A stretch of DNA of 64,000 bases from an uncultured Gammaproteobacteria bacterium (GCA_964596525.1 CAZQUL010000001.1:12830-76829), one strand, 5' to 3'. Positions 2,368 to 58,847 are shown, counted from the first letter of the stretch. The notes: generated from the sequence alone by a model not told the origin. A program made the numbers and translations.

Positions 2368-3516
2368 TTACTTAAGAGGCGGAATGACGACGATCCCGTT
2401 CGCACGTAGGGCATTGGGACCGAGAACGACACGGGTCTTGATGGTGAGCTTAGGCGCTGCCGCCTCATAAAGGACGATGGAGGCAGCGAGCGGCTCGCGC
2501 ACCAAAGCGGCCACATACGTATCGATCGCGACGATCTCAGAAGGGCCGGCTTCAAATGTATCGAACGTGGCGGCTTTCGGATCATCGATCACCACGTTCA
2601 TACCGCGCAGATGAAGGGCAGTAATACTCTTTCCATCGCTGTTGGCACTCCAACACGCACCCGTCCAGCACGAGATGGTACGCGGCAGCGCTTCGGGAGA
2701 CGTCATGTCGGTGAGTACGTTACTGCTGAGTGCAAGGTACTGATTGGAGCGCGCCAGCGTGACCACAGCTTGGTCGCTCGTCACGCCGATACCGAACGGC
2801 ATCTTGTACGTACCGGCGGGCAGCGGCATGAGCGTGCTTACGCTCCCGGTTACAACCGCGCCGTTCACGAGGGATACCGATTCAACCGTGCCGCCCATGC
2901 CGATATCATCGCCTTTATTGGTTACGAGGAGGCGCCCGGGCGGGACGTAAGCTACCTGGGCCGGATTGGTTCCCTGCAGCGCAACCGTCCCCTCGGGAAC
3001 GGCTTCGACCATATCGCCGAAGCGTGCATACGACGCCACATGGCTCACGGTAAGAACGTAAAGATGCCGATCATCGGCGGAGAACGTCGCGCTCACCGGC
3101 GTGTCGGCGGTCTTGATGAGGTCGACATAGACGGGCTGGCGCGCACGAGCAAGACTGTAAATACCAACAGCACTGCTCCGAGCGTTTACGACCGCCAAAA
3201 GGCGACGATCGGTCGAGAGCGCCAAACCACCGGCATTCCCGCTCACACCACCCTTAAACGGCGTAGGCGTCTCGGTGATAAACCGCCCCAAGCCATCGTA
3301 GGTAACGAGACGATTGTATTCTACATCGTTCGTCATTGTTACGAGGAGGGGCTGATCCGAAACCGGCAGAACTGGTGACACCGACGGAGGCTGAACCGTC
3401 ACCATTCCGAAATCCGTTCGCTCTGGCGTCAACGCACCAGGCGGGGTATCAGCACACCCCGAGAGTAAAGCGCACGAAAGAAGTGAACACGTAAACAACC
3501 AACGCAATTCCATCAT
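2368..3516 (-). CDS. lipoprotein with YVTN-type beta-propeller repeats
   Basis: Internal start MMELRWLFTCSLLSCALLSGC (lipobox LSGC) with GAGGTG RBS. Repeated beta-strand-rich segments of the lactonase/YVTN-propeller type follow. Confidence 0.6.
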   Translation of the reverse strand: MMELRWLFTCSLLSCALLSGCADTPPGALTPERTDFGMVTVQPPSVSPVLPVSDQPLLVTMTNDVEYNRLVTYDGLGRFITETPTPFKGGVSGNAGGLALSTDRRLLAVVNARSSAVGIYSLARARQPVYVDLIKTADTPVSATFSADDRHLYVLTVSHVASYARFGDMVEAVPEGTVALQGTNPAQVAYVPPGRLLVTNKGDDIGMGGTVESVSLVNGAVVTGSVSTLMPLPAGTYKMPFGIGVTSDQAVVTLARSNQYLALSSNVLTDMTSPEALPRTISCWTGACWSANSDGKSITALHLRGMNVVIDDPKAATFDTFEAGPSEIVAIDTYVAALVREPLAASIVLYEAAAPKLTIKTRVVLGPNALRANGIVVIPPLK

Positions 3517-7033: not shown

Positions 7034-9238
7034 ATGCGCACGCCTTGTATAGCCAGCAGTTTCATTCTTACACTTATAGCCGCCATCGGTTTCGCATCTA
7101 GTGCCGAAGCTAAAACGATTCTCACCGATGTACCGCGCGCCAGCTGGGCCCGCTACGGCATCAACCCGTGGAAGCTCGATACGGACAACGACGGCATAAA
7201 AGACAGCGAGGAAATTGCCGCCAAACAGTGCCCGACGAACGCCGACCCCACCTCTCTCACCGACAAAAACTGCAAGCGCGGCACGTTTAACCTCAAAACT
7301 GAGACATACACGGCTCCAGCGGGCGCTAATTTCCTTAAGGCGCGCGAAATTAAAAAATTCCGCTCATGCACGGAACTCACCGCTGCGTTTAAAACCGCAC
7401 AGCTCGAAGGGCAGCGTGATTACTATATGCCAGAAGCGTTCGGCATAAGCCAAACCATCCTTACGTCTGCCGCCCGTGAAGCAGTAAACATTTCCGCTCC
7501 CGCAGCAGCCGGTCTCCCTGCAGCGCCACCGATTTTTTCTACTACCAACATCCAAGTGCAAGGCGTTGACGAAGGCGATATCGTGAAAACCGATGGTAAA
7601 ACCATTTACTACCTCAAAGGGGGCAGCGCCATCTACATTACCTCGGCCGACCCGAATAAAACCGAGCCGCTCGGCGTGATTCCCATCAGCACTATCATGC
7701 AGGCGCAAGAAATGTACCTCGCGGACAACAAACTGGTCGTCGTTGGACGCGCTCATTACGGTTTAGTGCAGAGCGAAACATACACCCTCAAAAACGCTCT
7801 GGGGCTTGTAGCGAGTTCGCCTGTTTTTATGGGGAGCAATCGCACCATCGCCGCTATCTTTGATGTAAGCAATCCAGAACGCACAAGCGTGCCGCGCGTC
7901 GTTGAGATCACGGGTAATCTGCGCACATCACGCCTCACCAACGGGTATTTATATCTGATCCTCAACCAGTCCATTCCCTACTACCTCTCCCCTTCAGCCG
8001 CCACCGACGCATTGCCGCAGATGCGCAACTTCAATAACATCGCTTCCATTACCACGGTTGCAGACAGTCAGTCAGCTCCCGGTTTCAAACCACTCGCTAA
8101 CTGCACGAACGTAGAATATCTCTACCCTAACCGCGGTACCGGCTACGTAGAAATTGTCGCCATTCCGGTAAATGATGCAAAAGCAGCGATCGGCAGCAAG
8201 GTCATCTGGGGCGTCGGTTCAGCCGATGAAATCTATGTTTCGCCAACGAACCTCTACATCGCCTCCCCCAATTATCAGTATCGCTTCTGGCGCGGTACGG
8301 TAGAGAGAAGTGAGCTTTATAAATTCTCGCTCAACAAAAACACCATCAAATTCGTCGCTGCCCAAACCGTACCAGGACATGTGCTCAACCAGTTCTCAAT
8401 GGACGAACAGAGCGGACTTTTACGCCTTGTCACCACTGAACGCGAACGCACGCGCACCGGTGATTTCGTCAATCATCTCTTCGTTTTGAACGATGATTTA
8501 AGCAACCTCGGCAGCGTTGATCGTTTTGCCCCGACGGAGCGCATCTATTCAGCCCGTTTCATGGGTGATCGTGCCTACGTTGTCACGTTCCGCACGGTGG
8601 ATCCCTTCATCGTATTCGACCTTAAAGATCCGCGTTCACCGCAATACATCGGCGAACTCAAGATTCCGGGCTTCTCCACGTACCTACACCCATACGATGC
8701 CACGCACATCATCGGCATTGGCCGCAACACCGGTGCCGATGAAAACGGCACGGTCTGGACCGAAGGCATCAAACTCGGCCTCTTCGACGTGACGAATCCG
8801 AATATTCCGACCCAGATGTTCTCCACCACCATCGGGGACCGCGGCACGGATTCTATCGCGCTCGACGACCACCATGCTTTCCTTTTCTCGCGCGAGAAAA
8901 ACCTCCTCGCTTTCCCGGTGCGCATCCACACGTTCACGGACGAACAAAAAAATTCCACCACTACCCGGCCATGGGAATACGGTTCGCAGACCTTCCAAGG
9001 ACTTCTTGCATACCGACTCGATCTTATGAACGGCTTTAGGGAAATCGGCCGCGTGACGCACCATTCCACGACCACGCCGGATGAAGTCTGCATCTATAGC
9101 GCAGCGCTCTTTGGCTGCGGCAGCGACGAGGTGCGTCGTTCCTTCTACATCAACGATAATCTCTATGTCTTCTCGGATAAGCAGATGACGGTGCATAGCC
9201 TGGGTAATCTGCTCAAACTATCTGAAGTGAAATATTAA
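7034..9238 (+). CDS. secreted beta-propeller domain protein (signal peptide)
   Basis: N-terminal signal peptide ending SSAEA. The VQGVDEGDIVKTDGKTIYYL segment is typical of the secreted Beta_propel domain family. It is followed by a terminator hairpin. Confidence 0.65.
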   Translation: MRTPCIASSFILTLIAAIGFASSAEAKTILTDVPRASWARYGINPWKLDTDNDGIKDSEEIAAKQCPTNADPTSLTDKNCKRGTFNLKTETYTAPAGANFLKAREIKKFRSCTELTAAFKTAQLEGQRDYYMPEAFGISQTILTSAAREAVNISAPAAAGLPAAPPIFSTTNIQVQGVDEGDIVKTDGKTIYYLKGGSAIYITSADPNKTEPLGVIPISTIMQAQEMYLADNKLVVVGRAHYGLVQSETYTLKNALGLVASSPVFMGSNRTIAAIFDVSNPERTSVPRVVEITGNLRTSRLTNGYLYLILNQSIPYYLSPSAATDALPQMRNFNNIASITTVADSQSAPGFKPLANCTNVEYLYPNRGTGYVEIVAIPVNDAKAAIGSKVIWGVGSADEIYVSPTNLYIASPNYQYRFWRGTVERSELYKFSLNKNTIKFVAAQTVPGHVLNQFSMDEQSGLLRLVTTERERTRTGDFVNHLFVLNDDLSNLGSVDRFAPTERIYSARFMGDRAYVVTFRTVDPFIVFDLKDPRSPQYIGELKIPGFSTYLHPYDATHIIGIGRNTGADENGTVWTEGIKLGLFDVTNPNIPTQMFSTTIGDRGTDSIALDDHHAFLFSREKNLLAFPVRIHTFTDEQKNSTTTRPWEYGSQTFQGLLAYRLDLMNGFREIGRVTHHSTTTPDEVCIYSAALFGCGSDEVRRSFYINDNLYVFSDKQMTVHSLGNLLKLSEVKY

Positions 9239-27284: not shown

Positions 27285-30200
27285 TTAGACCACAACGGAA
27301 AGAAGCTTGCCTTTCACGTAAATGATCTTCTTCGGTTCATTGCCTTCGAGCCATTTTATCACTTTCTCGCTCGCGAGCGCGCGCTTTTTTATTTCATCCT
27401 CGCTCGTTTCAGCGGCAACGGTGAGCGTATCGCGTACCTTGCCGTTAACCTGCACGGCGATTTCGAGTTCCTGCGCTTTGGCAAGATCTGAATCATATGC
27501 GGGCCAGGCGGCGTACGCCACACTCCCCTCTTCGCCGAGCGCGCGCCACAGCTCTTCGGACAGGTGTGGCGCAAAAGGTGCGACGAGCCGAACGACGATT
27601 GATAGCGTTTCACGGGTTAAATTTTCTTCACGAGCCAAATCGTTAGAAAGTTCCATCAAACTTGCGACCGCAGTGTTGAAACGCATCGCTTCGATGTCTT
27701 CGGAAACTTTCTTGATGGTCCGATGGAGAGTATTGAGCACACCGGGAGAATCCGAGGTTTGAGATTCAGTTTCTGCAATCTTTATTTTCTGCGTGAGCCC
27801 CCACACTTTTTCCAAGAACCTTCTCACCCCGACGAGTCCGTTCGTGTCCCATTCGACCGGCTGATCGAACGGTCCCATGAACATGATGTAGGTGCGGAGC
27901 GTATCGGCACCGTAGTCGGCGATCACGTCGTCGGGATTCACCACGTTACCTTTGCTTTTGCTCATCTTCTCACCACCTTTGGCGAGGATGAGGCCGTGCG
28001 AAGTGCGTTTTTTGTACGGTTCGCTCACCGGTACAAGCCCGATGTCGAATAAGAATTGGTTCCAGAACCGCGAGTAGAGCAGATGGAGCACCGTGTGTTC
28101 CATACCGCCGTTATACCAATCGACTCCGCCTTCGCCTGGCTTCGGCGAGGCAAGCCCGCCATTCGTCATCCAGTATTTTAGTTTTTCCGATGAGGCGAAT
28201 TGTTTGTCGTTATGCGGATCGCAATAACGCAAGAAATACCAGCTCGAACCGGCCCAGTTGGGCATGGTGTCGGTTTCGCGGCGAGCGGCTCCGCCACAGC
28301 GCGGACACGTAGTTTTAACCCAGGATTCGATGGCGGCCAGAGGAGATTCCCCCGTATCGGTCGGTTCGTATTTTTCCACCTTCGGCAACTTGAGTGGAAG
28401 TTCAGATTCAGGAAGCGGAATCCAACCAGGATTAAGCTTTTCTCCTTCTGTTCTAAAAGTTATGGAATCTTTATTATTAGCGCACGAGAAACAGAACACA
28501 AGCGGAATCGGCTCGCCCCAATAACGCTGACGTGAAAATACCCAATCACGCAGCTTGAACTGCACTTCTTTTTTTCCGAGACCGCGCTCTTCGAGTCGAG
28601 CGATGATTTTTTCACGCGCCTCGGCCGTTCCAAGGCCGGTGAATTCGTGGGAGTTGGTAAGAACGCCTTCGCCGGTCCAGAGCTCGTCTTTAAGGACGCG
28701 TTTCCACATGAGGCGCATGTCCTGCACCCATGAGAGGAATTGATCAACTTCGTTCTTGTTTACCCAGTGCAGATCTTGGATATCTTGCTCTTCTTTGGAC
28801 ACTTCTTTCCGGTCGCCATTCTCGAGCTGAAAAAGAAACGGCTGAAAATGCGCCCAGCGGTTTTCGCTCTTTACTACTTGGTAGTACTGCGCATGAATGA
28901 TGCCGCCGAGTTTGCGCACAAGCTTGGCCGAGGTATAACCCGTTTCTTCCACGATTTCGCGCGCGGCGGTTTGGGCCGCGTCTTCGCCATCTTCGATGCC
29001 GCCGATGACGAACCCGCGCCAATCGGTTTTTTTCCATTTGAAGCAAAGATACTTGTCTTCACTCCAGTGTTTGACGATCGCGACCGCGTTGTGGCGTTTC
29101 TTGAAGGGTTCACTGCTGCGCACCGCATCGTCGCCGGTGGTTTTCTTGAAGAGCGGTTCAACAACTTCTCTCACCGGCAAACCGAACGTTTGGGCGAATT
29201 CGAAATCGCGTTCGTCGTGCGCTGGCACGGCCATGATGGCGCCGGTGCCGTAACCCGGAAGCACATAGTCAGCGACGAATATTGGCAGTTCCTTGCCCGT
29301 GAGCGGATGAAGCGCTTTCAATCCTTTAAGCTCTACCCCACTCTTGCCTTTCGCCAGATCGGTACGTTCCAAATCCGATTTCTTGCGGGTTGCTTCGATA
29401 TACTTTCTCACCTCGTCTGCATTTGTGATATCTGCTACCCACGCTTCGACATCTTTATGTTCGGGCGCAACAACGAGAAATTCGACGCCAAACAAAGTGT
29501 CGGGCCGGGTGGTGAAGACTTCGATTGTAGTTTCGTCATTGCGAGCCGAGGTACGGGGTGAATCAATCGCTTTGTTATCAGAACTTATTTTGGCAGCAGA
29601 GTCCGAAGTTGATTTTGGGGATTGCTTCGCTTTGCTCGCAATGACAGAGAAGATAATTCGCGCCCCTTCGCTTTTCCCGATCCAATTCTCTTGCTGCGTT
29701 TTTGCCTGCGGAATGTAATCAACGTCTTTGAGCCCGGCGAGGAGTTTGTCGGCGTACTTCGTAATGGCGAGCATCCACTGTTCTTTGTCACGGCGCTCCA
29801 CGGCCGTACCGCACCGCTCACAACAGCCGTTTACCACTTCTTCGTTGGCGAGACCGATTTTGTCTTTGGGGCACCAATTGATGGGCTGGTTTTTTTTGTA
29901 GGCGAGACCATGTTTATAAAATTGTAAAAACAACCACTGCGTCCATTTAAAGTACGCGGGGTCGGTGGTATCGACGACACGCGACCAGTCGAAACTGAAA
30001 CCAGACGCTTTGAGCTGGCGCGTAAAGGTAGCGATGTTTTCAGCGGTCACGTCGGAGGGCAGCCGGCCAGTTTTGATAGCAAAGTTTTCAGTCGGGAGTC
30101 CGAACGCGTCGAAGCCGATGGGGTACAACACGTTCTCTCCCTGCATGCGGCGCTTGCGGGCGATAACGTCCATGGCCGTAAACGGACGGCTATGACCCAC

Positions 30201-30347
30201 ATGCAAGCCAGCGCCGGAGGGATACGGAAATTCAATAAGGGCGAAAAATTTTTTCTTAGCTTCGTCTTCAGAGACGGCGAACGTCTTGTTTTTATCCCAG
30301 AATTCCTGCCATTTCTTTTCGATCTCGGCGGGGGTGTACTTGTGCAT
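27285..30347 (-). CDS. leuS: leucyl-tRNA synthetase with inserted Nudix hydrolase domain
   Basis: HVGH, the editing-domain segments TTRPDTLFG and GTGAIMAVPAHDERDFEFA, and KMSKS are all present. The Nudix box GGIEDGEDAAQTAAREIVEETGY lies within an approx 160-aa insertion (aa 395-555). Confidence 0.95.
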   Translation of the reverse strand: MHKYTPAEIEKKWQEFWDKNKTFAVSEDEAKKKFFALIEFPYPSGAGLHVGHSRPFTAMDVIARKRRMQGENVLYPIGFDAFGLPTENFAIKTGRLPSDVTAENIATFTRQLKASGFSFDWSRVVDTTDPAYFKWTQWLFLQFYKHGLAYKKNQPINWCPKDKIGLANEEVVNGCCERCGTAVERRDKEQWMLAITKYADKLLAGLKDVDYIPQAKTQQENWIGKSEGARIIFSVIASKAKQSPKSTSDSAAKISSDNKAIDSPRTSARNDETTIEVFTTRPDTLFGVEFLVVAPEHKDVEAWVADITNADEVRKYIEATRKKSDLERTDLAKGKSGVELKGLKALHPLTGKELPIFVADYVLPGYGTGAIMAVPAHDERDFEFAQTFGLPVREVVEPLFKKTTGDDAVRSSEPFKKRHNAVAIVKHWSEDKYLCFKWKKTDWRGFVIGGIEDGEDAAQTAAREIVEETGYTSAKLVRKLGGIIHAQYYQVVKSENRWAHFQPFLFQLENGDRKEVSKEEQDIQDLHWVNKNEVDQFLSWVQDMRLMWKRVLKDELWTGEGVLTNSHEFTGLGTAEAREKIIARLEERGLGKKEVQFKLRDWVFSRQRYWGEPIPLVFCFSCANNKDSITFRTEGEKLNPGWIPLPESELPLKLPKVEKYEPTDTGESPLAAIESWVKTTCPRCGGAARRETDTMPNWAGSSWYFLRYCDPHNDKQFASSEKLKYWMTNGGLASPKPGEGGVDWYNGGMEHTVLHLLYSRFWNQFLFDIGLVPVSEPYKKRTSHGLILAKGGEKMSKSKGNVVNPDDVIADYGADTLRTYIMFMGPFDQPVEWDTNGLVGVRRFLEKVWGLTQKIKIAETESQTSDSPGVLNTLHRTIKKVSEDIEAMRFNTAVASLMELSNDLAREENLTRETLSIVVRLVAPFAPHLSEELWRALGEEGSVAYAAWPAYDSDLAKAQELEIAVQVNGKVRDTLTVAAETSEDEIKKRALASEKVIKWLEGNEPKKIIYVKGKLLSVVV

Positions 30348-32871: not shown

Positions 32872-33276
32872 ATGTACCAGAAGATCCGAAACGCACTTAT
32901 CGCTGCCGGCTGCACGTTTTTCCTCTCGTTTTCCGCCTGCAACGACGACGGCCTGACCGCAGAGGCCATGTCCGAAACCTGGCGCAAGATGACCAGTCCC
33001 AACGAGCTTTTGATCCGCGATGCCTGCGCGGGGAATCTCATCGATGGATTTCCTGGCAGCGGTGAAGTGAAGAGGCGCTCCATCTGCATTCTCAATCCAG
33101 AGGTATCGACCGAGGAATGCCGATATGAGATGGACAGAGCTGCCCCGATTCTGGCCAACAAGCGAACCTTGATGCCCGAGGATGGCAGCGGCAGCTGCGG
33201 CATTTCGAAGCTCCCCTTCATGGGTGGCGAGATCATTGGCTGTACCTACTGCGAATGGACAGTCCAGAAGAAGTAG
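32872..33276 (+). CDS. small Cys-rich lipoprotein
   Basis: MYQKIRNALIAAGCTFFLSFSAC lipobox; 10 Cys in the mature part. Confidence 0.5.
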   Translation: MYQKIRNALIAAGCTFFLSFSACNDDGLTAEAMSETWRKMTSPNELLIRDACAGNLIDGFPGSGEVKRRSICILNPEVSTEECRYEMDRAAPILANKRTLMPEDGSGSCGISKLPFMGGEIIGCTYCEWTVQKK

Positions 33277-40712: not shown

Positions 40713-40746
40713 TTTCGTTACCCTTCGCGGACACGTTATGAAATGC

Positions 40747-42699: not shown

Positions 42700-42747
42700 A
42701 AGTTAATCGGGAGCTTCTAGACTACTACCACCGGACCAAAGAAGAAC

Positions 42748-42966: not shown

Positions 42967-43095
42967 AACGGGATGAGGGATAGGTAAGAGTGGCAGGAAA
43001 TAGAGTGCCCGAAGGAGCAGAGCTCCCGGTTCTTAGGATGGACCTACCCTACAATACTAGGCGCAGATTGTCAACAGAGCCCGCTTAATAAAGCC

Positions 43096-43119
43096 AAAAA
43101 CCTCCTCAAGTAAGGAGAT
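43096..43119 (-). terminator. terminator for HU gene
   Basis: Minus-strand hairpin atctcct-tacttg-aggaggt with one G-U pair, followed by a U-run. Confidence 0.55.
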
Positions 43120-43140
43120 TTCTGGTCAGGAACGGTAGAG

Positions 43141-43419
43141 TTACTTTTTGAGTTCGTCTTTGAGACCTTTACCGGCTTTGAATTTCGGAACCTTGACGGC
43201 CGGAATGGTGATTTTCTCGGTCGGTTTCTGTGGGTTGACACCCGTGCGAGCAGCGCGCGTTTTCACGCTGAAAGCGCCGAAACCAGTGAGAACGACTTCG
43301 TCGCCTTTCTTGAGCGTCATGGTGATGGTGTCGATGAAGGCGTTAACCATATCTTCACCTTCGCGTTTGGAAACGTTCATTTTTTCGGCGAGAGCCTGGG
43401 CCAATTCTGCTTTGTTCAT
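43141..43419 (-). CDS. hup: HU family DNA-binding protein
   Basis: Start MNKAELAQALAEK, preceded by AAGGGGG. GFGAFSVKTRAARTGVNPQ arm. Confidence 0.85.
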   Translation of the reverse strand: MNKAELAQALAEKMNVSKREGEDMVNAFIDTITMTLKKGDEVVLTGFGAFSVKTRAARTGVNPQKPTEKITIPAVKVPKFKAGKGLKDELKK

Positions 43420-43732
43420 AACGTCACCCCCTTTCCGTGGAACATGATTCTGTACATACACGCTACGTTAAGCGGAGCAAAAATGTGATAACCACACGGT
43501 GAGTATAGCACGGTGCTTATTTCTTCGCTAGTTTCAGCGAAGAATTATCCACAGACCTGTTACAAAACGAAGAAAAAATGTCAAATTGTGAAAAATGTGG
43601 ATAAAGAAGAGGTGAAATTATTCCAATTTTCCTCATTAATTAACTATCGCTATAAGCTCGTCTGTACCAAATTTTGAAAATATTTACATACCAAAAAAGA
43701 GCGGACCATACCGCCCTTTTTTGGTATGAAGA

Positions 43733-45259: not shown

Positions 45260-45589
45260 ACAAAAAACACCTAACCAGACGGTCGGTGAAAGCGGTTTTC
45301 CGGGTTGTATGACAAATCTTTACGGCCTTTGCGGACAGCCCAACATGCGCGCTAGCTAACAACCAAAGACGTTCGTACAAGCAAAACATCCCTTGCAGGA
45401 AGGGAAACAAGGGCTCTCGAAACGCGCATTGTAGATAAAGATGTCATAAATAGGGAGGTCGGCGGCAGCAGGCAAAAGCACACAGGCAGAGCAGGCATTC
45501 CACGGAAGACGGATCACTGATCGTATGGGATACGAATAAAGTGCCTATAAGGTAGCACGCGGTAAGGCGAAATGTCAATGTAGATATTA

Positions 45590-45616
45590 GAAAACCCGCT
45601 ACCAGAAGGAGCGGGT
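45590..45616 (-). terminator. terminator for 45655..46596
   Basis: Stem acccgct/agcgggt followed by a U-run on the minus strand. Confidence 0.5.
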
Positions 45617-45654
45617 ACTCTCAAGCGAGAGGAAAGAGCGAGGGAGCTGGCCGG

Positions 45655-46596
45655 TTATGGCTTGCAGGAGTTGGGGATGCCGGGCTCCGGGGTGGTGCAG
45701 GGCACGCTCTCGGTCTCACCGTCCGGACGCTGGTAAGCGCGGCGCAGCTGAGCGCCGGCGGGTGCGCGCACCGAGGTAAGCTCGTCGCCCGAGCGGCCGA
45801 CCAAGTGAATCACGGTATCATTTCCCGTCCGTTGCACGCACTGCCCGTCGGCGCTGCACAGGTCGATGTTCTGGCCATTGGCGTTCAAGACCAACACTCC
45901 TAACGGGAAGTTCGCATTGGCCGCGACGCCGAGCGATCCATACACACCGCCGTTCTGAATGGTGTAGGGCGCCTGGTAAAGGGCGGTTCCCACCATGTCG
46001 CGCGTACTCTTGTTGGGCACGCAGCCGTAGCTTCCGATGGTCTTGTCGCGCTCGAGCCGGTAGCAGGGGCCCGAGGGCAGCTTGTACGGGCAGCCGGGAC
46101 GCTTGGGATCGGGAACGATGCCGGGACCGCTGTTGGGCTCGGTGGGGCATTGATCCGTGGCATTGGACACGCCGTCGCCGTCGGTGTCGTTCGGGTCGTA
46201 TCCCGTGCCGCCGAGTCCGGCGACTACATCGTTGATAGGCTTTGCCACGAACTGCGGCCAGCCGGTCGGACCGCACCATGCCTGATCGACAGCACTCGCC
46301 TCGATGCGGTAAGCCTCAAGACTTCCCTTGCTCTGCTCGGTGACGAGGCAGACGGCTTGCGCTTTGGCATCGCCGTCGGGGCAGCAGGTCGCGGCTTGCG
46401 CACTATACTGATAGACCACATACCCGCCGCCTTGGCCACACATATCGATGGCCTCGTCGAGCTTCTGGCGCAGCGGAGTATCGCTCTGGCAGGTGAGGTC
46501 GGTGCGCGCCGAAAGACCGAGCCCACACCCGGAAAGCACCGTCGAAACAAGGGTGAGGATGAAGGTGGGAGGAATGAGAGAGCGAGAAGTGTGCAT
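45655..46596 (-). CDS. lipoprotein with thrombospondin type-3-like Ca-binding repeat (paralog A of 3)
   Basis: Lipobox LSGC; CCPDGDA motif; DTDGDGVSNATDQCP; RPGCPY; C-terminus ends SCKP. Confidence 0.65.
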   Translation of the reverse strand: MHTSRSLIPPTFILTLVSTVLSGCGLGLSARTDLTCQSDTPLRQKLDEAIDMCGQGGGYVVYQYSAQAATCCPDGDAKAQAVCLVTEQSKGSLEAYRIEASAVDQAWCGPTGWPQFVAKPINDVVAGLGGTGYDPNDTDGDGVSNATDQCPTEPNSGPGIVPDPKRPGCPYKLPSGPCYRLERDKTIGSYGCVPNKSTRDMVGTALYQAPYTIQNGGVYGSLGVAANANFPLGVLVLNANGQNIDLCSADGQCVQRTGNDTVIHLVGRSGDELTSVRAPAGAQLRRAYQRPDGETESVPCTTPEPGIPNSCKP

Positions 46597-46800
46597 GCTC
46601 AGACTCCTTGTTACGCAGCTACTTCATAAACAACAGCACTTATTCCGATATGATACCGGCAAGTACTGATAAAAAAATCCTATGACTTTTTTGCCTACTT
46701 GTCAACAGTATGACGGAATAAGCTGATAGGCCTGAAACAAAAAAGCCCGTTATTCAGCAGAGAAAACAGGCTTGTTTAAAAGTTGTGTGAAACCGCAGGG

Positions 46801-47742
46801 TTAGGGCTTACAACTGCCGCTCGCGCCGTTGTCCTTGGTGTCACAGGGCAGTTCGTAGATTGCGCGATTCACGAGCGAGTAGTACGTCTTAACGAGCGTG
46901 GCGCTCGCAAGACCTGTGCGTACGGAGGCAATCTCGTGGTTTGGTCCGACCACGAATACGCGGGTACTGCTCGCCCCAACTTGCTTGCACGCACCGGCGG
47001 CCGTGCACAGGTCGAACGAGCCGCTCAGGTTGGGCGTCGCAACACGCACTCCCAAAAGCACGTCGCCGACCAAATCGGTCCACAGACCGTCACTGCTTGA
47101 ACCGAACAGACGGGTCTCACGATCAAAGCTGACCGTCATGGCAAGCGTAGAGCGTTTGGGAATGCACGCGCGCTTTACGACTACGTTATCCCCCTTCACC
47201 TCGCCACACTCCCCGTCCGGAATCGGATAAGGGCAGCCGAAACGCTTAGGATCTGGGTCCGGGTAGGGCTCGGGCTTCTGGTCCGGACAGGCATCATCTG
47301 CATCCGGTACGCTATCGCGGTCACGGTCCGGCTTGACGGTCGGGCCCGTGCCTGTGAGACCAGCCATGACATCGTTGAGCTGGTAACGGCTCTTGGCATC
47401 GCCGGAAGCGAAGCCGCACCAACTGGTCAGCGCCGCTCCTTTGTTGACCCGATACAGCGAATGGATGTCCGTGGAATGGGCTTGCACGCCTTCCAGGCAG
47501 GCGATCTGATCCGGAGCATTACCATCCGGACAGCACGCCGCATAATCCGGAGCCTTCTGCGCCACGTAGCCACCGGTTCTAGCACAGCCTTCGAGCGCCT
47601 GATCGATCTTGATCGAAAAGATTTTGTCAGCTGACGCACCACAGATCAAATCTTCGGGTGGCGGCGAAGCAGTGCCGCAACCGATAGCGGTTGCAAGCAA
47701 AATGCCGAAACCACCACTCCTGTGCCGAAAAAATTCTTTCAT
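46801..47742 (-). CDS. lipoprotein, paralog B of TSP3-repeat family
   Basis: Lipobox AIGC; CCPDGNA; DRDRDSVPDADDACPD; RFGCPY; ends SCKP. Confidence 0.65.
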   Translation of the reverse strand: MKEFFRHRSGGFGILLATAIGCGTASPPPEDLICGASADKIFSIKIDQALEGCARTGGYVAQKAPDYAACCPDGNAPDQIACLEGVQAHSTDIHSLYRVNKGAALTSWCGFASGDAKSRYQLNDVMAGLTGTGPTVKPDRDRDSVPDADDACPDQKPEPYPDPDPKRFGCPYPIPDGECGEVKGDNVVVKRACIPKRSTLAMTVSFDRETRLFGSSSDGLWTDLVGDVLLGVRVATPNLSGSFDLCTAAGACKQVGASSTRVFVVGPNHEIASVRTGLASATLVKTYYSLVNRAIYELPCDTKDNGASGSCKP

Positions 47743-47940
47743 TATCTACCTCCGTAGTTTTACAGCATTGCAGCCGATACATTCGGGCAACACTGCCGTA
47801 GGGACGGTAGCGCGAAGAATCTTACCCGTCAAGAATAAGACGGAACGAATAAAAAACCTGCCTTCCCCGAAGGGTTGGCAGGCCAGAATCAAAGATCAAA
47901 TGGAAATTACAGAATCAAAGTGGAGGCAGAAGGCGGTTCA

Positions 47941-48867
47941 CTATGGCATGAGCACACAGGAGCCCGCCTCACCCATGTACTGGGCGGGGCAGGGGTCCGG
48001 GGTGACGATCGCCTTGGCGGCCACGTCCCAGTACGCCGGGCGCACGCTGAACGTGGCATTGCGCGTCCGAACCGTGGTGATGCCGCCCGGCGACACGACG
48101 TAGACCGTCTTGTTCGCCACGGGAACAGGGCGGCAGTTCCCACCCGCATCACAGACATCGACGTTGCCGGAGATCGTCCCCTGGCCGTCGACCGCGATGC
48201 CGACGAGGACCCGCGGACCGTTCGCCTTCACGTAGATGCCGCCACCCGGGGCGAGCGCACGCGAGTTCTGGTCGAAGCTCACAGGCATGGCGAACGTCGA
48301 AGGGCGCGAGACGCAGACCACGTCAGACACGACCGGATCGCTCTCGATCTTGTTGCAGGCTCCTCCGATGGGCTCCGCGTAGGGGCAGCCGGGGCGGGCC
48401 GGATCCTCGTACTGTCCGCGCGCCTCGTTGGGGCACTGGTCGTTCGCATCGGCGATGCCGTCGTTGTCGTTGTCCGGGTCGGGGCAGCCGTCGTCGTCCT
48501 TGAAGCCGTCCTTGTCCTCGGCCTCGTTCGGGCACTGGTCGCCCGTGTCCTGGAAGCCGTCCTTGTCCTTGTCGTTGTCGGGCGTGGCTTCGCAGTTGAT
48601 CGCCGCGAACTGGGACATGTCCTCGCCATCGAGGCAGGCCGCCTGGTCGCCGGTGTTGGGGCAGTACTTCTGCTTGTCGGCGAAGACCTCGGCTCCGCCG
48701 CGGCACAGGCCGTTGCCCTTCTGGGCACACTGATCGCTGCACCACTGCGGCGGGCCCTTGAGCCAGCTGCTAAACACTGAGTCGCAGCCGCTCACGAAGA
48801 ACGCTGCGATGCTCAGACACAGCACGCCAGCCGAGCGATAGACATTCTTGCCAATCTTCTTGCTCAT
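47941..48867 (-). CDS. lipoprotein, paralog C of TSP3-repeat family (three Asp-rich repeats)
   Basis: Start MSKKIG after GGAGGGA; lipobox VSGC. Repeats DKDKDGFQDTGDQCPNEAEDKDGFKDDDGCPDPDNDNDGIADANDQCP; RPGCPY present. Confidence 0.65.
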   Translation of the reverse strand: MSKKIGKNVYRSAGVLCLSIAAFFVSGCDSVFSSWLKGPPQWCSDQCAQKGNGLCRGGAEVFADKQKYCPNTGDQAACLDGEDMSQFAAINCEATPDNDKDKDGFQDTGDQCPNEAEDKDGFKDDDGCPDPDNDNDGIADANDQCPNEARGQYEDPARPGCPYAEPIGGACNKIESDPVVSDVVCVSRPSTFAMPVSFDQNSRALAPGGGIYVKANGPRVLVGIAVDGQGTISGNVDVCDAGGNCRPVPVANKTVYVVSPGGITTVRTRNATFSVRPAYWDVAAKAIVTPDPCPAQYMGEAGSCVLMP

Positions 48868-49139
48868 GACGATTCCCTCCCTATGCACTTCGATTTTCAA
48901 GGCTATCCCAATTTTGGAACCATTCCTCATTGGGACGATATAACGATGATTAGCATACCACAAAATCTGCCTATTGTCAAGACTATTTCGGGAACTATGT
49001 AGAGACGCTTTTTTCATTTAAATAAGCGAAAAAACCTTGTGTGCTTCTATTTGTTTAAGAATTGCCTACGAACTAGAATTAATATGACGGTAAGGAAGTC
49101 TGATGGTTGTGCAATTTTATCTCATATAAGCCAAACTTA

Positions 49140-52704: not shown

Positions 52705-53538
52705 CTAGCGGGCCGCAAGAATAGGCGTAGAAGTAACTCCGGGGGTGACACCGACTACCGTCGGGGTAGCGAGTGGTTTGCGGGGCGTGGCGCCCTTCAC
52801 TTCTACCGTATCACCCACCTGGAGGAATGCATATAACGCTTCTACGTCCTTGTACGCCACGTTTACGCAACCATGACTCATCGGGCGGATGCCGAACTGA
52901 TTATGCCAGTACGCGCCATGGATATAGTAGCTGCGCTTGAATTCCAGATTCCATTTGGTGTTGGGCAAATTGTAGCCTGGGCCGATGTAGTGCACAACCG
53001 GAACTTTGCGTATGACGCTAAAGGTGCCAAGCGGCGTTGGGGTACTGAGCTTGCCGCTTGAAACCGGCATGTCCCCAACAAGGACATTGTTGAGATAGTA
53101 GCTAAGCCGTTGCGTAGTAAGGTCTACAATCACTTTGCGCGGCAGCGCTGTATCGCGCCCTGCTTCCAGGGGATTGCCGCCTTTTTTAACCTCTTCGCCA
53201 TCATTTTTACCGTCTTTATCGGTATCGGCTTTGCCCAGATCGGTACCAAGCTTGAGCTCTAAGGCATCGCTTAAACCGTCTTTATCAGTATCCACCTCGG
53301 AGAGGCGCTTGCCGGCGGCAAGCGGCGAGTAATCGGCAAAAACTTCTTCTGCATCCGAAAAACCGTCGCCGTCGGTATCGGTTTTTTTAGGATCAGTATG
53401 ATACACGGCTACTTCCTCATGGTCGAACAAATTATCACCATCAGCATCAAATGCTGACACCTGCGCCTGAACTGAGGGGGCGCAGAGCAGTGCAGTTGCA
53501 ACCGCACAACCGAGCACAATATTCTTCATCATATGCAT
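52705..53538 (-). CDS. L,D-transpeptidase (YkuD) with N-terminal TSP3/dockerin-like Ca-binding repeats
   Basis: Catalytic HGCVNV; repeats DTDGDGFSDAEE, DTDKDGLSDALE and DTDKDGKNDGEE; signal peptide. Confidence 0.75.
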   Translation of the reverse strand: MHMMKNIVLGCAVATALLCAPSVQAQVSAFDADGDNLFDHEEVAVYHTDPKKTDTDGDGFSDAEEVFADYSPLAAGKRLSEVDTDKDGLSDALELKLGTDLGKADTDKDGKNDGEEVKKGGNPLEAGRDTALPRKVIVDLTTQRLSYYLNNVLVGDMPVSSGKLSTPTPLGTFSVIRKVPVVHYIGPGYNLPNTKWNLEFKRSYYIHGAYWHNQFGIRPMSHGCVNVAYKDVEALYAFLQVGDTVEVKGATPRKPLATPTVVGVTPGVTSTPILAAR

Positions 53539-53591: not shown

Positions 53592-54497
53592 TTAATAGTG
53601 ATTGAAAATACCTTTTCCGTCAAACCGGAAACTACCAGCTTCGTCGGTGCGCCAAACAGGTATTCCGGCACGTTCCAAACGGCGCAGCACTCGGCGTGAG
53701 GGGTGGCCGAACCGATTCTGTTCGCCCGCAGAAATTATGGCTTCGCGTGGCGCAACAGCGGCAATAAAATCTTCGCTGCTTGACGTATCGCTGCCATGGT
53801 GGCCGACCTTAAGGATCGGCGCACTAAGCTTCGGGCAGGAGAACTGTTTGACAGTTGAGGTAACGGACGTTGCAGGATCAGTATTACAGTACGTGGTGAG
53901 CAAAAACTGCTCAAGCGGCGCTTCCGCATCACCCGTAAAGAGCACGAGCGGTTTGCGCTCCGGGTCCACCAAACGAAAGACGATCGATGAGTTATTACTG
54001 TCTGCCGACTCACCGCTAAAACGTGGGTGCGGCGAAAGAATTTCGAACGCATACCCATCTATCTCCCAGACGTCCGGCGCCGTTACTGCGGCAAGCGGGA
54101 TTGCCCGTTCCTCAAAAGAACGCAATAGCTCTTTCCAAGCCGCATCATCCTTATCGTGACCATTGATGATGACGGCATGTACGGCGTAGCGCTCGACGAT
54201 TCCTTGGCACCCGGCATAGTGGTCGCTATCGGGATGTGTGATAACCAAAAAATCGATAGAACGGTCGTACCAGGGCAAAAGGCGCCCCACCTCGGCAAGC
54301 ACACGGCGGTCAGGGCCGCAATCGATGAGGATACGTTTACCGGAAGGAAGCGTTATAAAAGTTGCATCGCCTTGCCCTACATCAAGAAAATCGACGTAAA
54401 AACCTTGTTTTGAATGGGCGATGAACGCACCGATACTCAGGATAGTCATGACAACCACAGCGACGATAACGCACTGGCGAAAAAACGACACACGCAC
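53592..54497 (-). CDS. ComEC C-terminal-type metallo-beta-lactamase domain protein (stand-alone, TM-anchored)
   Basis: VGQGDATFITLPSGKRILIDCGPD and HPDSDHY, as in the ComEC/Rec2 MBL domain. Confidence 0.7.
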   Translation of the reverse strand: MRVSFFRQCVIVAVVVMTILSIGAFIAHSKQGFYVDFLDVGQGDATFITLPSGKRILIDCGPDRRVLAEVGRLLPWYDRSIDFLVITHPDSDHYAGCQGIVERYAVHAVIINGHDKDDAAWKELLRSFEERAIPLAAVTAPDVWEIDGYAFEILSPHPRFSGESADSNNSSIVFRLVDPERKPLVLFTGDAEAPLEQFLLTTYCNTDPATSVTSTVKQFSCPKLSAPILKVGHHGSDTSSSEDFIAAVAPREAIISAGEQNRFGHPSRRVLRRLERAGIPVWRTDEAGSFRFDGKGIFNHY

Positions 54498-55114
54498 TAT
54501 TTATTAATCTGTGCCGCGAAAAGTTCGGCGATCCACTGTCCGTTTTCGGTGATGCGCTCGCGACGCAAGATGGTAAAAAGGCTTTCTTCGAGCGCTTCAG
54601 CCACTGCTTCGGGACGGTGATAGTACGACTCGATCTTAACAATTCCTTGGGCTGTCTTGATTTCTGGCGGATCTTTCTGGTTGATAGCTGAAACGATAAA
54701 ACGGCCGTTAGGCACAAGTACGCGCCGCACTTCATCAAAGAAGTAATCGAGCCGTTTGAGGTGCACGATAAGGAAAAGCGCGGTCACCACATCGAATGAA
54801 GCATCGGGAAAGGGTATGTTTTCGGCTTCTCCCACGACAGTTGTAAGCCGCGCACTCCGCCCTTGTGCCACTTTGAGCATGGCCGGCGAATGATCAAGCA
54901 CAACTACTTCTCGGGCAGTAGCCGCAAACTTAACCGCTGTGCGGCCGGTACCACCACCCACATCAAGCAAACGCTGACCCGAAATGTCGCCGGTAAGCGC
55001 CCCAAGCATGCCCTGCTCAAAAGAATCCAGATACGCCTCATAGCGCCGGTACAGGGGCGCCACCGCTTCGTATCCAGCCTGTGAGGGCAGAAATTGTATT
55101 CGTTTTGAGGACAT
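54497..55114 (-). CDS. class I SAM-dependent methyltransferase
   Basis: LLDVGGGTGRTAVKFA motif I. The stop/start overlaps the downstream gene. Confidence 0.8.
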   Translation of the reverse strand: MSSKRIQFLPSQAGYEAVAPLYRRYEAYLDSFEQGMLGALTGDISGQRLLDVGGGTGRTAVKFAATAREVVVLDHSPAMLKVAQGRSARLTTVVGEAENIPFPDASFDVVTALFLIVHLKRLDYFFDEVRRVLVPNGRFIVSAINQKDPPEIKTAQGIVKIESYYHRPEAVAEALEESLFTILRRERITENGQWIAELFAAQINK

Positions 55115-55131
55115 AGCAAACTATATCGGGG

Positions 55132-56676
55132 TTATCGCACAGTTCGCTTATGCATGTCAATCCTTAAACGTGTATAACCAATACCGAAGATAAGCGCAGC
55201 ATACGCGGCAAACATGCCGAAGCGGCCCATCGCTACCGACACCACAGCAAACGGCACACGAGCCAACAAGCGCAGAAGATAAAAAATGATCCGCACTAAA
55301 CCGCCGGCTACAACACCCACTACGCTTCCCAACCCCTCATGCACCAAACCAACAAGAGTGGCAATAAAAGCAAAGAACATGATGAACGACGTGAGGGGCA
55401 CAACCAAGGTATTAGCTACAAGAGCAACAAGCGACACGCGGCCGAAATAGTACATAATGAACGGCAAGGTGCTGATGGTTGCAGATAACGTGGTAAGGCC
55501 AGCCTCGGCAAGAGCCGCCACAACACCCGTGAACCTCTTCCTCGGCACCCACCGCTCGAGGAGCGGCTGCACATACAGCAAACCGAGCGTTGCCGCCACT
55601 GAGAGATGAAAACCGATATCAAAAAGCAAGCTATACGGACTGAAGGTGATAAGAACGGCCACGGCATACATTATAAGGAGAGCTGGATTAAGCCGTCGGC
55701 TCATCTGGCGCGCCATAAGGGTGATAACCACCATGATACCAGCCCGCACCACCGAAGCCGAGGCACCGGCGAAAAGGACAAACACAATAATCGCCGCCAC
55801 GGTGATAAACCAGGTTTTACGCTCCGAAAGACCGCCCCATATAAACGCCTGCGCCACCGCGACAATGATAATGTTGAGATTCGCACCCGAAACTGCGATG
55901 AGGTGCGTTACCCCGGTTGCTGCAAATAAATCTGTTAAAGCCGGTGGCAAACCGGATCGGCTGCCATAGAGAATGCCCGCGATAAAACTCGACTCCGGTT
56001 CTTTCCATACTGCATCGATAGCGCGAGCCACCCGGGAACGCACTGCAAAAAGTATACGCCAAAACACCGACGACTCTCCTTTCCCCACAACTCCAATAGC
56101 TGAAGCCGTGCATTCGCCTACAAAACCGTTGATCCAGGCGTAGCGATCATACCGGAAAGCTTCATCGACAGCTGCCTCGGGGATACGCGGCGTACACGCA
56201 AACCGCACCAGGTCTCCGTAACGAGGCCCACTCTCACGCGGCGCACGAACGCGCAGCGCGACGGATTGTAGTTTTTCGGGACGTTCTATTTGCACGAGGT
56301 AGTACGTTCGGTCTAACCGGCGATCTGGATCATGCACGACCACCCCTTCAATATTAATCCGTTTACCTACCGCGGACGCGATACGTTCTACCGCCACAGC
56401 CGGCGTCGCGGTTTCTACGCGCCAGATGGCAAGAGTAGCTGCCAAACCAGCGGCTATCAACAAACGCAACTGCGGCCTACTCCACCACAAGCTTACCGCA
56501 CATAACAACCCGATCACCGCAAAAGGTATCAAAAAACTTATCGCGGCAACCACAGTTGGCGCTACGGTGCTCCACCCGATCGCAACGATATAGGTAACAA
56601 AAAAGACAACAACCACACCGTGCGCGCTATACCAGGGAAACCGCCGCCATCGCGAGAAGATATTCATATGAGACAA
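55132..56676 (-). CDS. comEC: ComEC/Rec2 N-terminal part (DUF4131 plus competence membrane domain), lacking the MBL domain
   Basis: THLIAVSGANLNII (compare HLLAISGLH), ASVVRAGIMV and FHLSVAATLGL competence-domain motifs; many TM helices. Confidence 0.75.
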   Translation of the reverse strand: MSHMNIFSRWRRFPWYSAHGVVVVFFVTYIVAIGWSTVAPTVVAAISFLIPFAVIGLLCAVSLWWSRPQLRLLIAAGLAATLAIWRVETATPAVAVERIASAVGKRINIEGVVVHDPDRRLDRTYYLVQIERPEKLQSVALRVRAPRESGPRYGDLVRFACTPRIPEAAVDEAFRYDRYAWINGFVGECTASAIGVVGKGESSVFWRILFAVRSRVARAIDAVWKEPESSFIAGILYGSRSGLPPALTDLFAATGVTHLIAVSGANLNIIIVAVAQAFIWGGLSERKTWFITVAAIIVFVLFAGASASVVRAGIMVVITLMARQMSRRLNPALLIMYAVAVLITFSPYSLLFDIGFHLSVAATLGLLYVQPLLERWVPRKRFTGVVAALAEAGLTTLSATISTLPFIMYYFGRVSLVALVANTLVVPLTSFIMFFAFIATLVGLVHEGLGSVVGVVAGGLVRIIFYLLRLLARVPFAVVSVAMGRFGMFAAYAALIFGIGYTRLRIDMHKRTVR

Positions 56677-56721: not shown

Positions 56722-57168
56722 TTACAAAAAGAGGGCTACGAAACTGTTCGTCGGCCGACCAATGGCGATATTGATCGCCATGCTGGTCAACGAATACGAG
56801 GAGAGAATAATGACGAGACCAATCGTAGCGTTGCGGATGGTATGTTTGGCTTTATCGATCTGTTCGTCGTTGCCACCGGCCGTGAGCCAGAGATAACCGG
56901 CGTACAACATGTAGCAAAAGACGATAATAGCCAAGAGCCGCAGAATGGAGCGCACCAAAAGCATGATGGTTACCCGTGGATCCACCGGATCACCAAAACC
57001 AGCACCGCGTTTGCCGCCAGCAGCAGCAAGCTGCGCGCCAATGTCTTCACCTACGCCGGTATCTTGCGCTTGTACAGGCAGAGCCGGAAGAGCGATTGGA
57101 AGCGCAACCAAAACTGCCATACCAAGGAAGGCGAGGGTGCGTTGAACGCGGCGAGCAAACGTAGCCAT
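56722..57168 (-). CDS. VirB2/TrbC-like pilin-family protein (array member 1)
   Basis: Signal peptide, then YAGYLWLTAGGNDEQIDKAKHTIRNATIGLVIILSSYSL. Confidence 0.65.
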   Translation of the reverse strand: MATFARRVQRTLAFLGMAVLVALPIALPALPVQAQDTGVGEDIGAQLAAAGGKRGAGFGDPVDPRVTIMLLVRSILRLLAIIVFCYMLYAGYLWLTAGGNDEQIDKAKHTIRNATIGLVIILSSYSLTSMAINIAIGRPTNSFVALFL

Positions 57169-57199
57169 ACAAAATGAAGAAAGGTAAAAGAAACGAGAT

Positions 57200-57685
57200 C
57201 TAGAAAACGTAATTCCACCAGTTATCTTTGAAGGATTTGCCAAAACTAGTCCAAAAACCGCCTGTACCGTAGCCCGGGCCAACGGAACCACTTGAGGGCG
57301 CACCCGACGTAAGCGCAACGACACCTACCAAGAAGGCCGACAAACCATAGGCCGCCATTACCACGACAAGACCCATAGTAGAGGTCTTAATGATATCTTT
57401 TGCCTTATCGACCTGACCTTCATCACCCTGCGCCGTGAGCCACAAGAAACCGGCGTATACGAGCAGGATGAAAAAAATAGTACCGATAAGCGACATGGCG
57501 ATGCGGATGATGCGGCCGATGGTTTCGGACAAGGTCGTATCCGTCACTTGTTTAACATCGTAACCGCTTTTTCCAGCCACTTCTTCGGTTAAACTCATAA
57601 TGTCCGGCTGAGCCAGAGAAACGACCGGCAAAGCGAAGGCGGTCGTAGCTACAACACCGAGAATAAGGCGCGATACTTTTGTCAT
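57200..57685 (-). CDS. VirB2/TrbC-like pilin-family protein (2)
   Basis: YAGFLWLTAQGDEGQVDKAKDIIKTSTMGLVVVMAAYGLS. Confidence 0.7.
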   Translation of the reverse strand: MTKVSRLILGVVATTAFALPVVSLAQPDIMSLTEEVAGKSGYDVKQVTDTTLSETIGRIIRIAMSLIGTIFFILLVYAGFLWLTAQGDEGQVDKAKDIIKTSTMGLVVVMAAYGLSAFLVGVVALTSGAPSSGSVGPGYGTGGFWTSFGKSFKDNWWNYVF

Positions 57686-58158: not shown

Positions 58159-58713
58159 TTAATTTCCCACATCAACGCAACGAGCATTGTCAGTTCCTTC
58201 GTTTATCCACGCACATATCGAAGCATTCGCATTGGTGTTTTCGGCAAGACAGGAATCACGCGTAACGTTGATGACACACGAGACATTATTTCCAGCCGCA
58301 CTTGAGGCAGCAGCGTTACGGGATAACTGATCGAAGACGAACTGAGTAATAGCGTACGCAGCCAAAACGATCACCAAACCGATAACCGAAGCTTCCATGA
58401 TACTTTTCGCTTTGCTGATACTGTCTTCGCTGCCGCGAGCCGTCATCCAGAGAATGCCGGCGTAAAAGATGAGTCCAAAGAAAACGATACCCAAAAAGCC
58501 CAACACCGCACCAACCAACGTACCGACCAGCTCGGGAACGGTGCCTGCGCCGGCTATTTTAGAAGGTAAAAGATTCGCGTTGCCGCGATTAACTTCTTGG
58601 ACCGTAAGAGACAGGCCGTAATCTTTTTTCTGTTGCGCATGAGCGCCAGAAAACGGCAGGACAAGTGAGGCAAGCCCTACCACAAGGCTGCCGATGACAA
58701 GCATTTTTTTCAT
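58159..58713 (-). CDS. VirB2/TrbC-like pilin-family protein (4) with Cys-containing C-terminal tail
   Basis: YAGILWMTARGSEDSISKAKSIMEASVIGLVIVLAAYAI. Start placed at the MKKML ATG; the track uses an upstream TTG. Confidence 0.7.
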   Translation of the reverse strand: MKKMLVIGSLVVGLASLVLPFSGAHAQQKKDYGLSLTVQEVNRGNANLLPSKIAGAGTVPELVGTLVGAVLGFLGIVFFGLIFYAGILWMTARGSEDSISKAKSIMEASVIGLVIVLAAYAITQFVFDQLSRNAAASSAAGNNVSCVINVTRDSCLAENTNANASICAWINEGTDNARCVDVGN

Positions 58714-58847
58714 ACCGTACAAGGTCCTAAATGAAGAAGGTAATGCCCCGAAAAGTTGGGTCTTTGCGAAGCACTCTCTTCTTCAAACCCCTCAGTCCGA
58801 GGGAGTGGCGGCCGCACACCCCCTCGAACATAAGAGAGATTCTCGTT

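Follow-up and report, generated by a model that had tools for sequence, protein, structure and literature searches.

In a 64,000-nt stretch of DNA deposited under an uncultured Gammaproteobacteria bacterium (GCA_964596525.1 CAZQUL010000001.1:12830-76829; hereafter the window, with positions counted from its first letter), three genes lie in tandem on the minus strand between positions 45,655 and 48,867. An earlier note, made from the sequence alone, had described them as paralogous lipoproteins with Asp-rich repeats of the thrombospondin type-3 (TSP3) kind. The open reading frames (ORFs), named here paralogues A, B, and C, and the island that holds them are located as follows:

45655..46596, minus strand: paralogue A, an ORF of 313 aa, also characterized by alignments, TSP_3 scores, and AlphaFold2 (AF2) models
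46801..47742, minus strand: paralogue B, an ORF of 313 aa, with a sequence identical to P0001
47941..48867, minus strand: paralogue C, an ORF of 308 aa
45260..49197, no strand: variable island from the start of the RNase Y gene to the start of the divergent IF-2 gene, defined by comparison with 50 relatives

The ORF calls thus uphold three tandem paralogous lipoprotein genes on the minus strand. The lengths of 313 aa announced for A and B were correct, whereas paralogue C has 308 aa and not 309. Its ORF can be extended to position 49017. Within the added part lies a promoter-like site, and the ATG at 48867 has a GGGAGGG ribosome-binding site ahead of it, which makes the 308-aa protein the likely product. 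The spacers of the array measure 204, 198, and 330 nt. Full-length pairwise identity among the three proteins is 28–34%, and their paralogy extends beyond the Asp-rich repeats, outside which BLASTP gave E values from 1e-6 to 1e-21. The condition that would have refuted the earlier note, a likeness restricted to these repeats, clearly does not hold. The C-terminal domains of B and C align at E 3.5e-21, those of A and B at 2.8e-13, and those of A and C at 1e-6. The N-terminal modules of A and B are also clearly related (E 1.8e-18); that of paralogue C is short and only weakly similar to that of B (E 0.005).

Window positions 40676-48588 were recovered with 0 mismatches in an independent Logan assembly of run SRR11567520. 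The contig of that assembly (L001) ends at 48588, inside the repeated TSP3-coding DNA of paralogue C, where two copies (48422-48483 and 48521-48582) are 77% identical. Paralogue C is therefore on record only from the NCBI genome. A foreign origin of the region was considered from its GC content of 0.57–0.58, against about 0.52 for the window, and set aside: the deviation is mild, other segments reach 0.56, and composition is not used as evidence here.

The three proteins share a four-part layout: a lipobox signal peptide, an N-terminal Cys module, one or two TSP3 units, and a C-terminal all-beta domain. In paralogue A, the lipobox (...TVLSG/C24) is followed by the N module (residues ~25-135), the TSP3 unit (135-170), and the all-beta domain (171-313). 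Paralogue B has the same organization after its lipobox (...ATAIG/C22), with a single TSP3 unit. Paralogue C, with the lipobox ...FFVSG/C28, combines a short divergent N module with two TSP3 units and the C-terminal beta domain. The lipoboxes LSGC, AIGC, and VSGC read from the sequence are thus present. All three signal peptides display the pattern [LVI][ASTVI][GAS]C together with a hydrophobic h-region and a positive n-region (K/R within the first 12 residues), as predicted for lipoproteins. Among the N-terminal motifs proposed for all three proteins, GGYV, CCPDG, and Q.ACL occur in A and B and only partly in C. The C-terminal ends are SCKP in A and B and SCVLMP in C, in line with the proposed Cys-Pro ending.

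For the N module, of about 110 aa, the AlphaFold model shows a small alpha/beta structure, with helices at 41-56 and 77-89, a hairpin at 58-73, and a strand at 94-98; its predicted local distance difference test score (pLDDT) is about 80. The C-terminal domain, of about 143 aa and modelled alone by AF2, is all-beta with 11 strands (pLDDT 88.5; predicted template modelling score, pTM, 0.83), as expected from the earlier description of a beta-rich C terminus. In the full-length model the TSP3 unit has a pLDDT below 55, as expected, because the loop is modelled without Ca. Neither domain could be connected to a described family. Outside the repeat, there was no match in Pfam, NCBIfam, PADLOC, or PHROGs. 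PDB sequence searches with A, with a C-domain profile, and with an N-module profile returned nothing significant. With Foldseek against the PDB, the best E value was 0.08 for the full model and 0.25 for the C domain, with TM-scores of at most 0.25; in a viral library the best match had an E value of 0.14.

For the census, the C-terminal domains of A, B, and C were combined into a profile and searched with HMMER against the 1.84 billion representatives of the clusters formed by about 15 billion public proteins. At E<=1e-3, eight were retrieved, corresponding to six family members and two spurious repeat proteins. The three additional members have the same layout and are encoded outside the 64-kb window: P0005 (324 aa, E 5e-19), P0006 (334 aa, E 1.6e-10), and P0007 (308 aa, E 1.2e-6). 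All six form singleton clusters and map to one contig of 1,343,778 bp, that is, to one genome. Five of the six were also found in Logan assemblies, in two runs of one project. Word-indexed searches with B, with the six-sequence alignment, and with a repeat-deleted alignment of the N and C parts retrieved proteins of the source genome only, plus TSP3-repeat matches in the first two. As these searches missed some paralogues, the census rests on the exhaustive HMMER search. Patterns of the C domain gave 61 matches and no confirmed member among GTDB species representatives, a collection from which the source genome is absent, and C-domain and N-module patterns found no member in JGI metagenome contigs. 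Likewise, no family member was detected by tblastn and hidden Markov model (HMM) searches of the RNase Y loci of 80 relatives. The copy-number comparison across related genomes that the earlier note had proposed thus gives six copies in one genome and none in the 80 related loci. Beyond that note, the proteins are an orphan family confined to one genome and containing two undescribed domains. We state the architecture and the census with high confidence.

The six paralogues are 23–43% identical. A is closer to P0005 than to its neighbours in the array, and no long identical DNA tract was found within the array when we looked for gene conversion. From these two observations, the array is old relative to the pace of change of its genes, and it is not being homogenized. 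P0006 and P0005 are probably a second tandem pair, judging from their sequence context. A contig ending 87 bp past P0006 overlaps by 24 nt a contig starting 268 bp before P0005, and both genes end in a common terminator of at least 30 nt (GCCGTTACCTCGTGTGACGGC followed by TTTTGTG), which breaks short-read assemblies at this point. P0007 is a singleton.

The six members, of 308–334 aa, all carry a lipobox (VSGC, LNGC, and LSGC in P0005, P0006, and P0007, respectively) and contain 4.0–6.0% Cys. After the lipobox Cys, 11 Cys columns are invariant and three are nearly so. The number of Cys in the mature protein is even in each of the six (14, 14, 16, 12, 18, and 14). P0005 lacks the equivalents of both C53 and C71, a joint loss expected for a disulfide pair. 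The conserved Cys of the C domain form three local pairs, in A 178/192, 247/253, and 300/311, and the pair within the repeat (C150 and C169 in A) is invariant. This pattern points to fully disulfide-bonded extracytoplasmic proteins rather than to metal sites. The proteins are probably both anchored at the surface and disulfide-bonded.

The same conservation bears on two other explanations. With no annotation, Pfam family, or homologue elsewhere, the ORFs could in principle be mis-called or decaying rather than functional genes. However, at only 23–43% identity, the Ca motif, the lipobox, and 11 invariant Cys are retained in six intact paralogues, which requires purifying selection at the protein level. 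The genes have their ribosome-binding sites, promoters, and terminators, the model of the C domain is confident, and the sequence was recovered identically in an independent assembly. We therefore regard non-functional ORFs as extremely improbable. Alternatively, with their abundant Cys (4–6%) and many Asp, the proteins might act at the cell surface as binders or buffers of a metal such as Zn in response to metal limitation. The genomic context of one member would fit such a role: a cluster containing two CobW/COG0523 genes and a gene resembling nicotianamine synthase (PF03059) lies 190 nt upstream of P0006 in the same orientation (L083 5822..11005; L082; L084), and P0005 probably comes after P0006. 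The even Cys counts, the local pairs, and the loss of one pair as a unit are instead those of disulfides, and we found no His-rich or CxxC metal motif. P0006 also has its own consensus promoter, and A, B, C, and P0007 have no metal-related neighbours. A metal-handling function consequently seems distinctly unlikely.

The Asp-rich units are TSP3 repeats of the bacterial OmpA kind, as had been suggested. A profile of the eight units of the six proteins matches PDB entry 5WTL, an OmpA family protein, over five stretches with an E value of 1e-21, and the repeat region of paralogue C alone matches it at 3.4e-10. The consensus of the unit is P.P.DRD.DGV.DADDQCPDEA.G..PDP.R.GCPY, in which the three Asp of the DxDxD core (D5, D7, and D9), D16, the first Cys two residues further on (C18), P19, and the second Cys are invariant in 8/8 units. 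The unit of A reads DTDGDGVSNATDQCP...DPKRPGCP and that of B DRDRDSVPDADDACP...DPKRFGCP, with a Ser replacing the Gly. This replacement occurs in the units of B and P0007 and likewise in the OmpA-family protein P0002, one repeat of which is 71% identical to the unit of B. The motif (R/K)(P/F)GCPY, listed before as a separate element, is present in the forms KRPGCPY, KRFGCPY, and ARPGCPY. It is not a distinct motif but the tail (DPxRxGCP) of the repeat, which OmpA-family proteins have as well: the eight-unit alignment ends with it, and in P0002 the tail is repeated along with the rest of the unit. There is one unit in A and one in B; C has several, as claimed, though not three equal repeats, since only two are delimited by Cys and the first contains an extra Asp loop.

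The Pfam TSP_3 model (PF02412; curated cut-off 25 bits) stays under its cut-off on complete proteins, scoring 22.3 bits for A, 14.8 for C, and 18.0 for P0006, with no hit for B, P0005, or P0007. On isolated units all eight match at E<=1, that of A with 26.5 bits. The HMM search suggested earlier thus gives hits at E<=1 for the single units, that of A above the cut-off, and scores below it or no hit for full-length proteins. Searching with the family profile, we found 119 OmpA-family proteins, most with TSP_3, that match only positions ~121-165; they have a median of four repeats each and belong mostly to Myxococcota and other former Deltaproteobacteria. By analogy with the OmpA-type unit of 5WTL, for which Ca binding is reported to depend on a disulfide within the repeat (Dai et al. 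2017, Cell Calcium 66:78, cited in PMC12045341), the unit would bind Ca and its two Cys would be paired.

The genome that carries these genes is that of a Candidatus Magasanikbacteria (Patescibacteria): the best relatives of the flanking RNase Y, up to 81% identical, are metagenome-assembled genomes of this lineage. In 50 relatives we found IF-2 and RNase Y on one locus, divergently oriented in all save two. The distance between the two gene starts varies from 459–536 bp, with no gene in between (L002, L003, and L011), to about 8 kb. In the window it is 3.9 kb and filled by A, B, and C. In six of the nearest relatives (L004-L008 and L047; RNase Y 75–79% identical), it contains other Cys-rich proteins with 17–39 Cys, most of them with lipoboxes. 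These proteins are unannotated, with up to 39 Cys in 312–418 aa, repeats of the CxxxxDCxSGxC type, and only weak matches to Pfam families (Dickkopf_N and DUF7107), below the cut-offs. Some are themselves tandem paralogues, at 41% identity in L047 and also in L005. More distant relatives have TruB and assorted genes at this place. Since the gap is empty or differently filled among relatives, the array lies in a variable island that, in this subclade, is devoted to lineage-specific Cys-rich lipoproteins. A hot spot of surface-lipoprotein turnover between lineages is the best explanation for this gap. We also considered homology between the family and the lipoproteins of the sister loci and rejected it (HMM E > 0.02; hhalign probability 0.1%).

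The earlier note had further proposed a Ca-dependent cell-surface scaffold shared with a neighbouring L,D-transpeptidase. Under this explanation, the lipoproteins and the TSP3-bearing transpeptidase would form a Ca-bridged layer organizing or tethering the cell wall, much as OmpA proteins with TSP3 repeats connect the outer membrane with peptidoglycan. The repeat unit is indeed that of peptidoglycan-associated proteins of the OmpA family, and a YkuD protein with Asp-rich repeats is encoded about 4 kb away, at 52705..53538. This YkuD protein, with three repeats, was likewise not found in the loci of the 80 relatives, many of which have thioredoxin and DUF4349 in synteny; its gene is possibly a further lineage-specific envelope gene. 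However, the repeats of the YkuD protein are of another type: it scores 52.7 bits over three stretches against TSP3_bac (PF18884), a family without Cys that has no match in A, B, or C. IF-2, thioredoxin, and DUF4349 lie between, the genes are separately transcribed, and nothing links them. None of the six proteins carries an OmpA (PF00691) or another peptidoglycan-binding domain: a PF00691 search of the six gave no match at E<=1 or E<=0.1, and OmpA-family proteins match on the repeat unit only. Finally, a structural part of the envelope should be conserved, and the family was found in no relative. The link to the transpeptidase is therefore unsupported, and we consider an envelope scaffold quite unlikely.

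Asp-rich motifs are not limited to these genes. The Beta_propel protein (PF09826, 482 bits) encoded at 7034..9238 on the plus strand has one TSP3_bac-like motif (DTDNDGIKDSEE) near its N terminus, suggesting that Asp-rich Ca motifs occur in several exported proteins of this genome.

The expression signals of the array were read from the sequence as follows:

48952..48980, minus strand: promoter-like site for C, TTGACA-17-TATGCT, the second hexamer being preceded by TG; the leader downstream measures about 80 nt and leads to the GGGAGGG ribosome-binding site
47855..47882, minus strand: terminator-like hairpin after C, CCTGCC..CCTTCGGGGAAGG..GGCAGG then TTTTTT
~47803-47831, minus strand: weak promoter-like site for B, TTGACG-17-TACCGT
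46737..46775, minus strand: terminator-like hairpin after B, AAGCCUGUUUUC...AACGGGCUU then UUUUUG
46677..46705, minus strand: promoter-like site for A, TTGACA-17-TAGGAT; the leader downstream measures about 75 nt and leads to an AAGGAG ribosome-binding site
45589..45617, minus strand: terminator-like hairpin after A, ACCCGCUCC...GGUAGCGGGU then UUUUCU

Alignment of the regions upstream of the six family genes gives an invariant TTGACA, a 17-nt spacer, TAnnnT, a leader of 65–90 nt, and a good ribosome-binding site. Each of the six genes also has a terminator-like hairpin of its own; in A, B, and C, a GC-rich hairpin with a U-run lies 3' of the gene. These signals agree with the suggestion, drawn from the spacers and hairpins, that the three genes are separate transcription units, on the understanding that consensus matches of this kind are not proof. 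A leader RNA motif shared by the six genes was also considered. It was dropped: apart from the promoter hexamers, conservation in the alignment is limited to a short segment 5' of the -35. An Rfam search returned nothing relevant.

Six diverged copies, each with its own promoter, part of them in a locus that turns over between lineages and all with a very narrow distribution, might also be surface decoys or phage-receptor variants. Such a repertoire would vary the cell surface by switching expression, with no specific ligand being bound. In the 4.1 kb examined for phase variation, however, there are no switching signals, be they simple-sequence tracts, inverted repeats flanking promoters, or long identical tracts. 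Defence models (PADLOC) gave nothing relevant, and neither did tblastn against phage genomes in INPHARED; the proteins match no phage family. We attach little probability to this possibility.

We favour another reading, in which the six proteins are lineage-specific, fast-diverging surface lipoproteins, stabilized by Ca and stapled by disulfides, that probably bind a ligand or a host; on the evidence above we judge its chances to be evenly balanced. Bacteria of this group are not known to have an outer membrane. The proteins would be exported by the Sec pathway, lipid-modified at the lipobox Cys, and anchored to the outer face of the cytoplasmic membrane. Lipoproteins of this kind would require Lgt and LspA to be encoded in the genome; Lgt has been reported in other genomes of the Candidate Phyla Radiation (CPR; PMC4736985). 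All remaining Cys would be paired in disulfides, the pair of the repeat closing the Ca-binding loop as in 5WTL. Loaded with Ca, the repeat could act as a stiff spacer holding the C-terminal beta domain off the membrane. In TraB, a cell-contact protein of Myxococcus, repeats of this type serve as links between domains (PMC12045341, citing Dai et al. 2017). An external ligand would then be bound by the beta domain, perhaps together with the N module; this ligand would most likely be a component of the matrix or of a partner-cell surface. Through duplication and subsequent fast divergence (23–43% identity), a repertoire of binding specificities may have arisen, with the IF-2/RNase Y gap as a place of turnover for surface-protein genes of this kind among lineages. 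Members of the radiation are generally host-dependent and presumably surface-attached. This lifestyle, together with strain-variable Cys-rich exported proteins of Peribacteria for which attachment has been proposed (PMC4736985), is the source of the attachment idea.

The binding or adhesion role itself remains tentative, somewhat short of an even bet. Several observations weigh against the reading that contains it. The family has no recognizable adhesin domain, and the beta domain, being without a structural relative, gives no hint of a ligand. The position of P0006 beside the nicotianamine-synthase/CobW cluster hints at a different role. The AF2 models were built from six sequences only. In addition, the RNase Y of the closest relative sampled is only 81% identical, so that the apparent restriction of the family to one genome may partly reflect poor sampling of the lineage. 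We can formulate a bolder version, which we regard as unlikely: the C domain, and possibly also the N module, would represent a new fold, and the six genes a host- or substrate-recognition set of this Magasanikbacteria lineage, encoding Ca-stiffened, lipid-anchored binders whose turnover in the IF-2/RNase Y hot spot sets the partner specificity of a CPR episymbiont.

Partner-cell recognition and attachment are largely unexplained in CPR bacteria, and their surface proteins are mostly unannotated. With about 310 aa, a TSP3 unit that has a solved homologue, and two undescribed domains that are modelled with confidence, the family is small and tractable. Its six diverged copies in a single 1.3-Mb genome, with no other found among about 15 billion public proteins, represent an extreme lineage restriction. 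The gap is occupied by unrelated Cys-rich lipoproteins in sister genomes, which allows the turnover of surface genes to be followed from genome to genome. Should the binding role be confirmed, these proteins are candidate specificity determinants of an uncultivated symbiont; otherwise, they constitute an ordinary, narrow family of hypothetical lipoproteins.

The family is a kind of TSP3-bearing surface protein and an example of lineage-specific exported CPR proteins, and it can be compared with four known systems. With OmpA-family TSP3 proteins (PF02412 and PF00691; PDB 5WTL), it shares the repeat DxDxDGxxDxxDxCP...GCP and its two Cys. It differs from them by the lack of the OmpA peptidoglycan-binding domain and of a beta-barrel, by one or two units instead of about four, each a few residues longer, by its lipid anchor, and by unrelated flanking N and C domains. 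TSP3 repeats also occur in the Myxococcus cell-contact surface proteins TraB, MtsC/MtsD, and CglD (NCBIfam NF033763, NF047638/9, and NF033765), where the likeness is limited to the repeats. For paralogue C, the matches to TraB (32 bits; cut-off 700) and MtsC (20.9 bits; cut-off 350) are weak and confined to the repeats. Size and domain make-up differ, and with cut-offs of 350–700 bits the lipoproteins are not members of these families.

The Cys-rich exported proteins of Peribacteria belong to the same radiation and likewise combine signal peptides, a high Cys content, clustered genes, and variation between strains or lineages (Anantharaman et al. 2016). They average about 1,655 aa and contain Cys-rich repeats of the Myxococcus type (PMC4736985). 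By contrast, the proteins described here have about 310 aa, well under the >1,000 aa used to define that group, are lipid-anchored, and carry the TSP3 unit. We found no sequence relation between the two, and a search of the six proteins with the Cys-rich repeat families gave no match. A parallel in position is provided by the gap lipoproteins of the sister Magasanikbacteria (L004-L008 and L047), which occupy the same place in the same orientation, are Cys-rich, and mostly have lipoboxes. They contain Dickkopf/EGF-like CxxxC repeats instead of the TSP3 unit and have different C-terminal domains.

Elsewhere in the window, two further ORFs, at 2368..3516 (minus strand) and 32872..33276 (plus strand), start with lipobox-type signal peptides and belong to no Pfam family. 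ComEC is apparently split over 53592..56676 on the minus strand, with Competence and DUF4131 domains at 55132..56676 and a metallo-beta-lactamase ORF at 53592..54497. The two parts are separated by a 205-aa ORF (54497..55114) that looks methyltransferase-like by eye. Beside these genes, the minus-strand ORFs 56722..57324 and 58159..58722 match T4SS_pilin (PF18895) with about 30 bits. Lastly, the leucyl-tRNA synthetase of 1020 aa (27285..30347, minus strand) has an unusual insertion, a NUDIX domain (residues 418-542, 48 bits) located directly after the editing domain.

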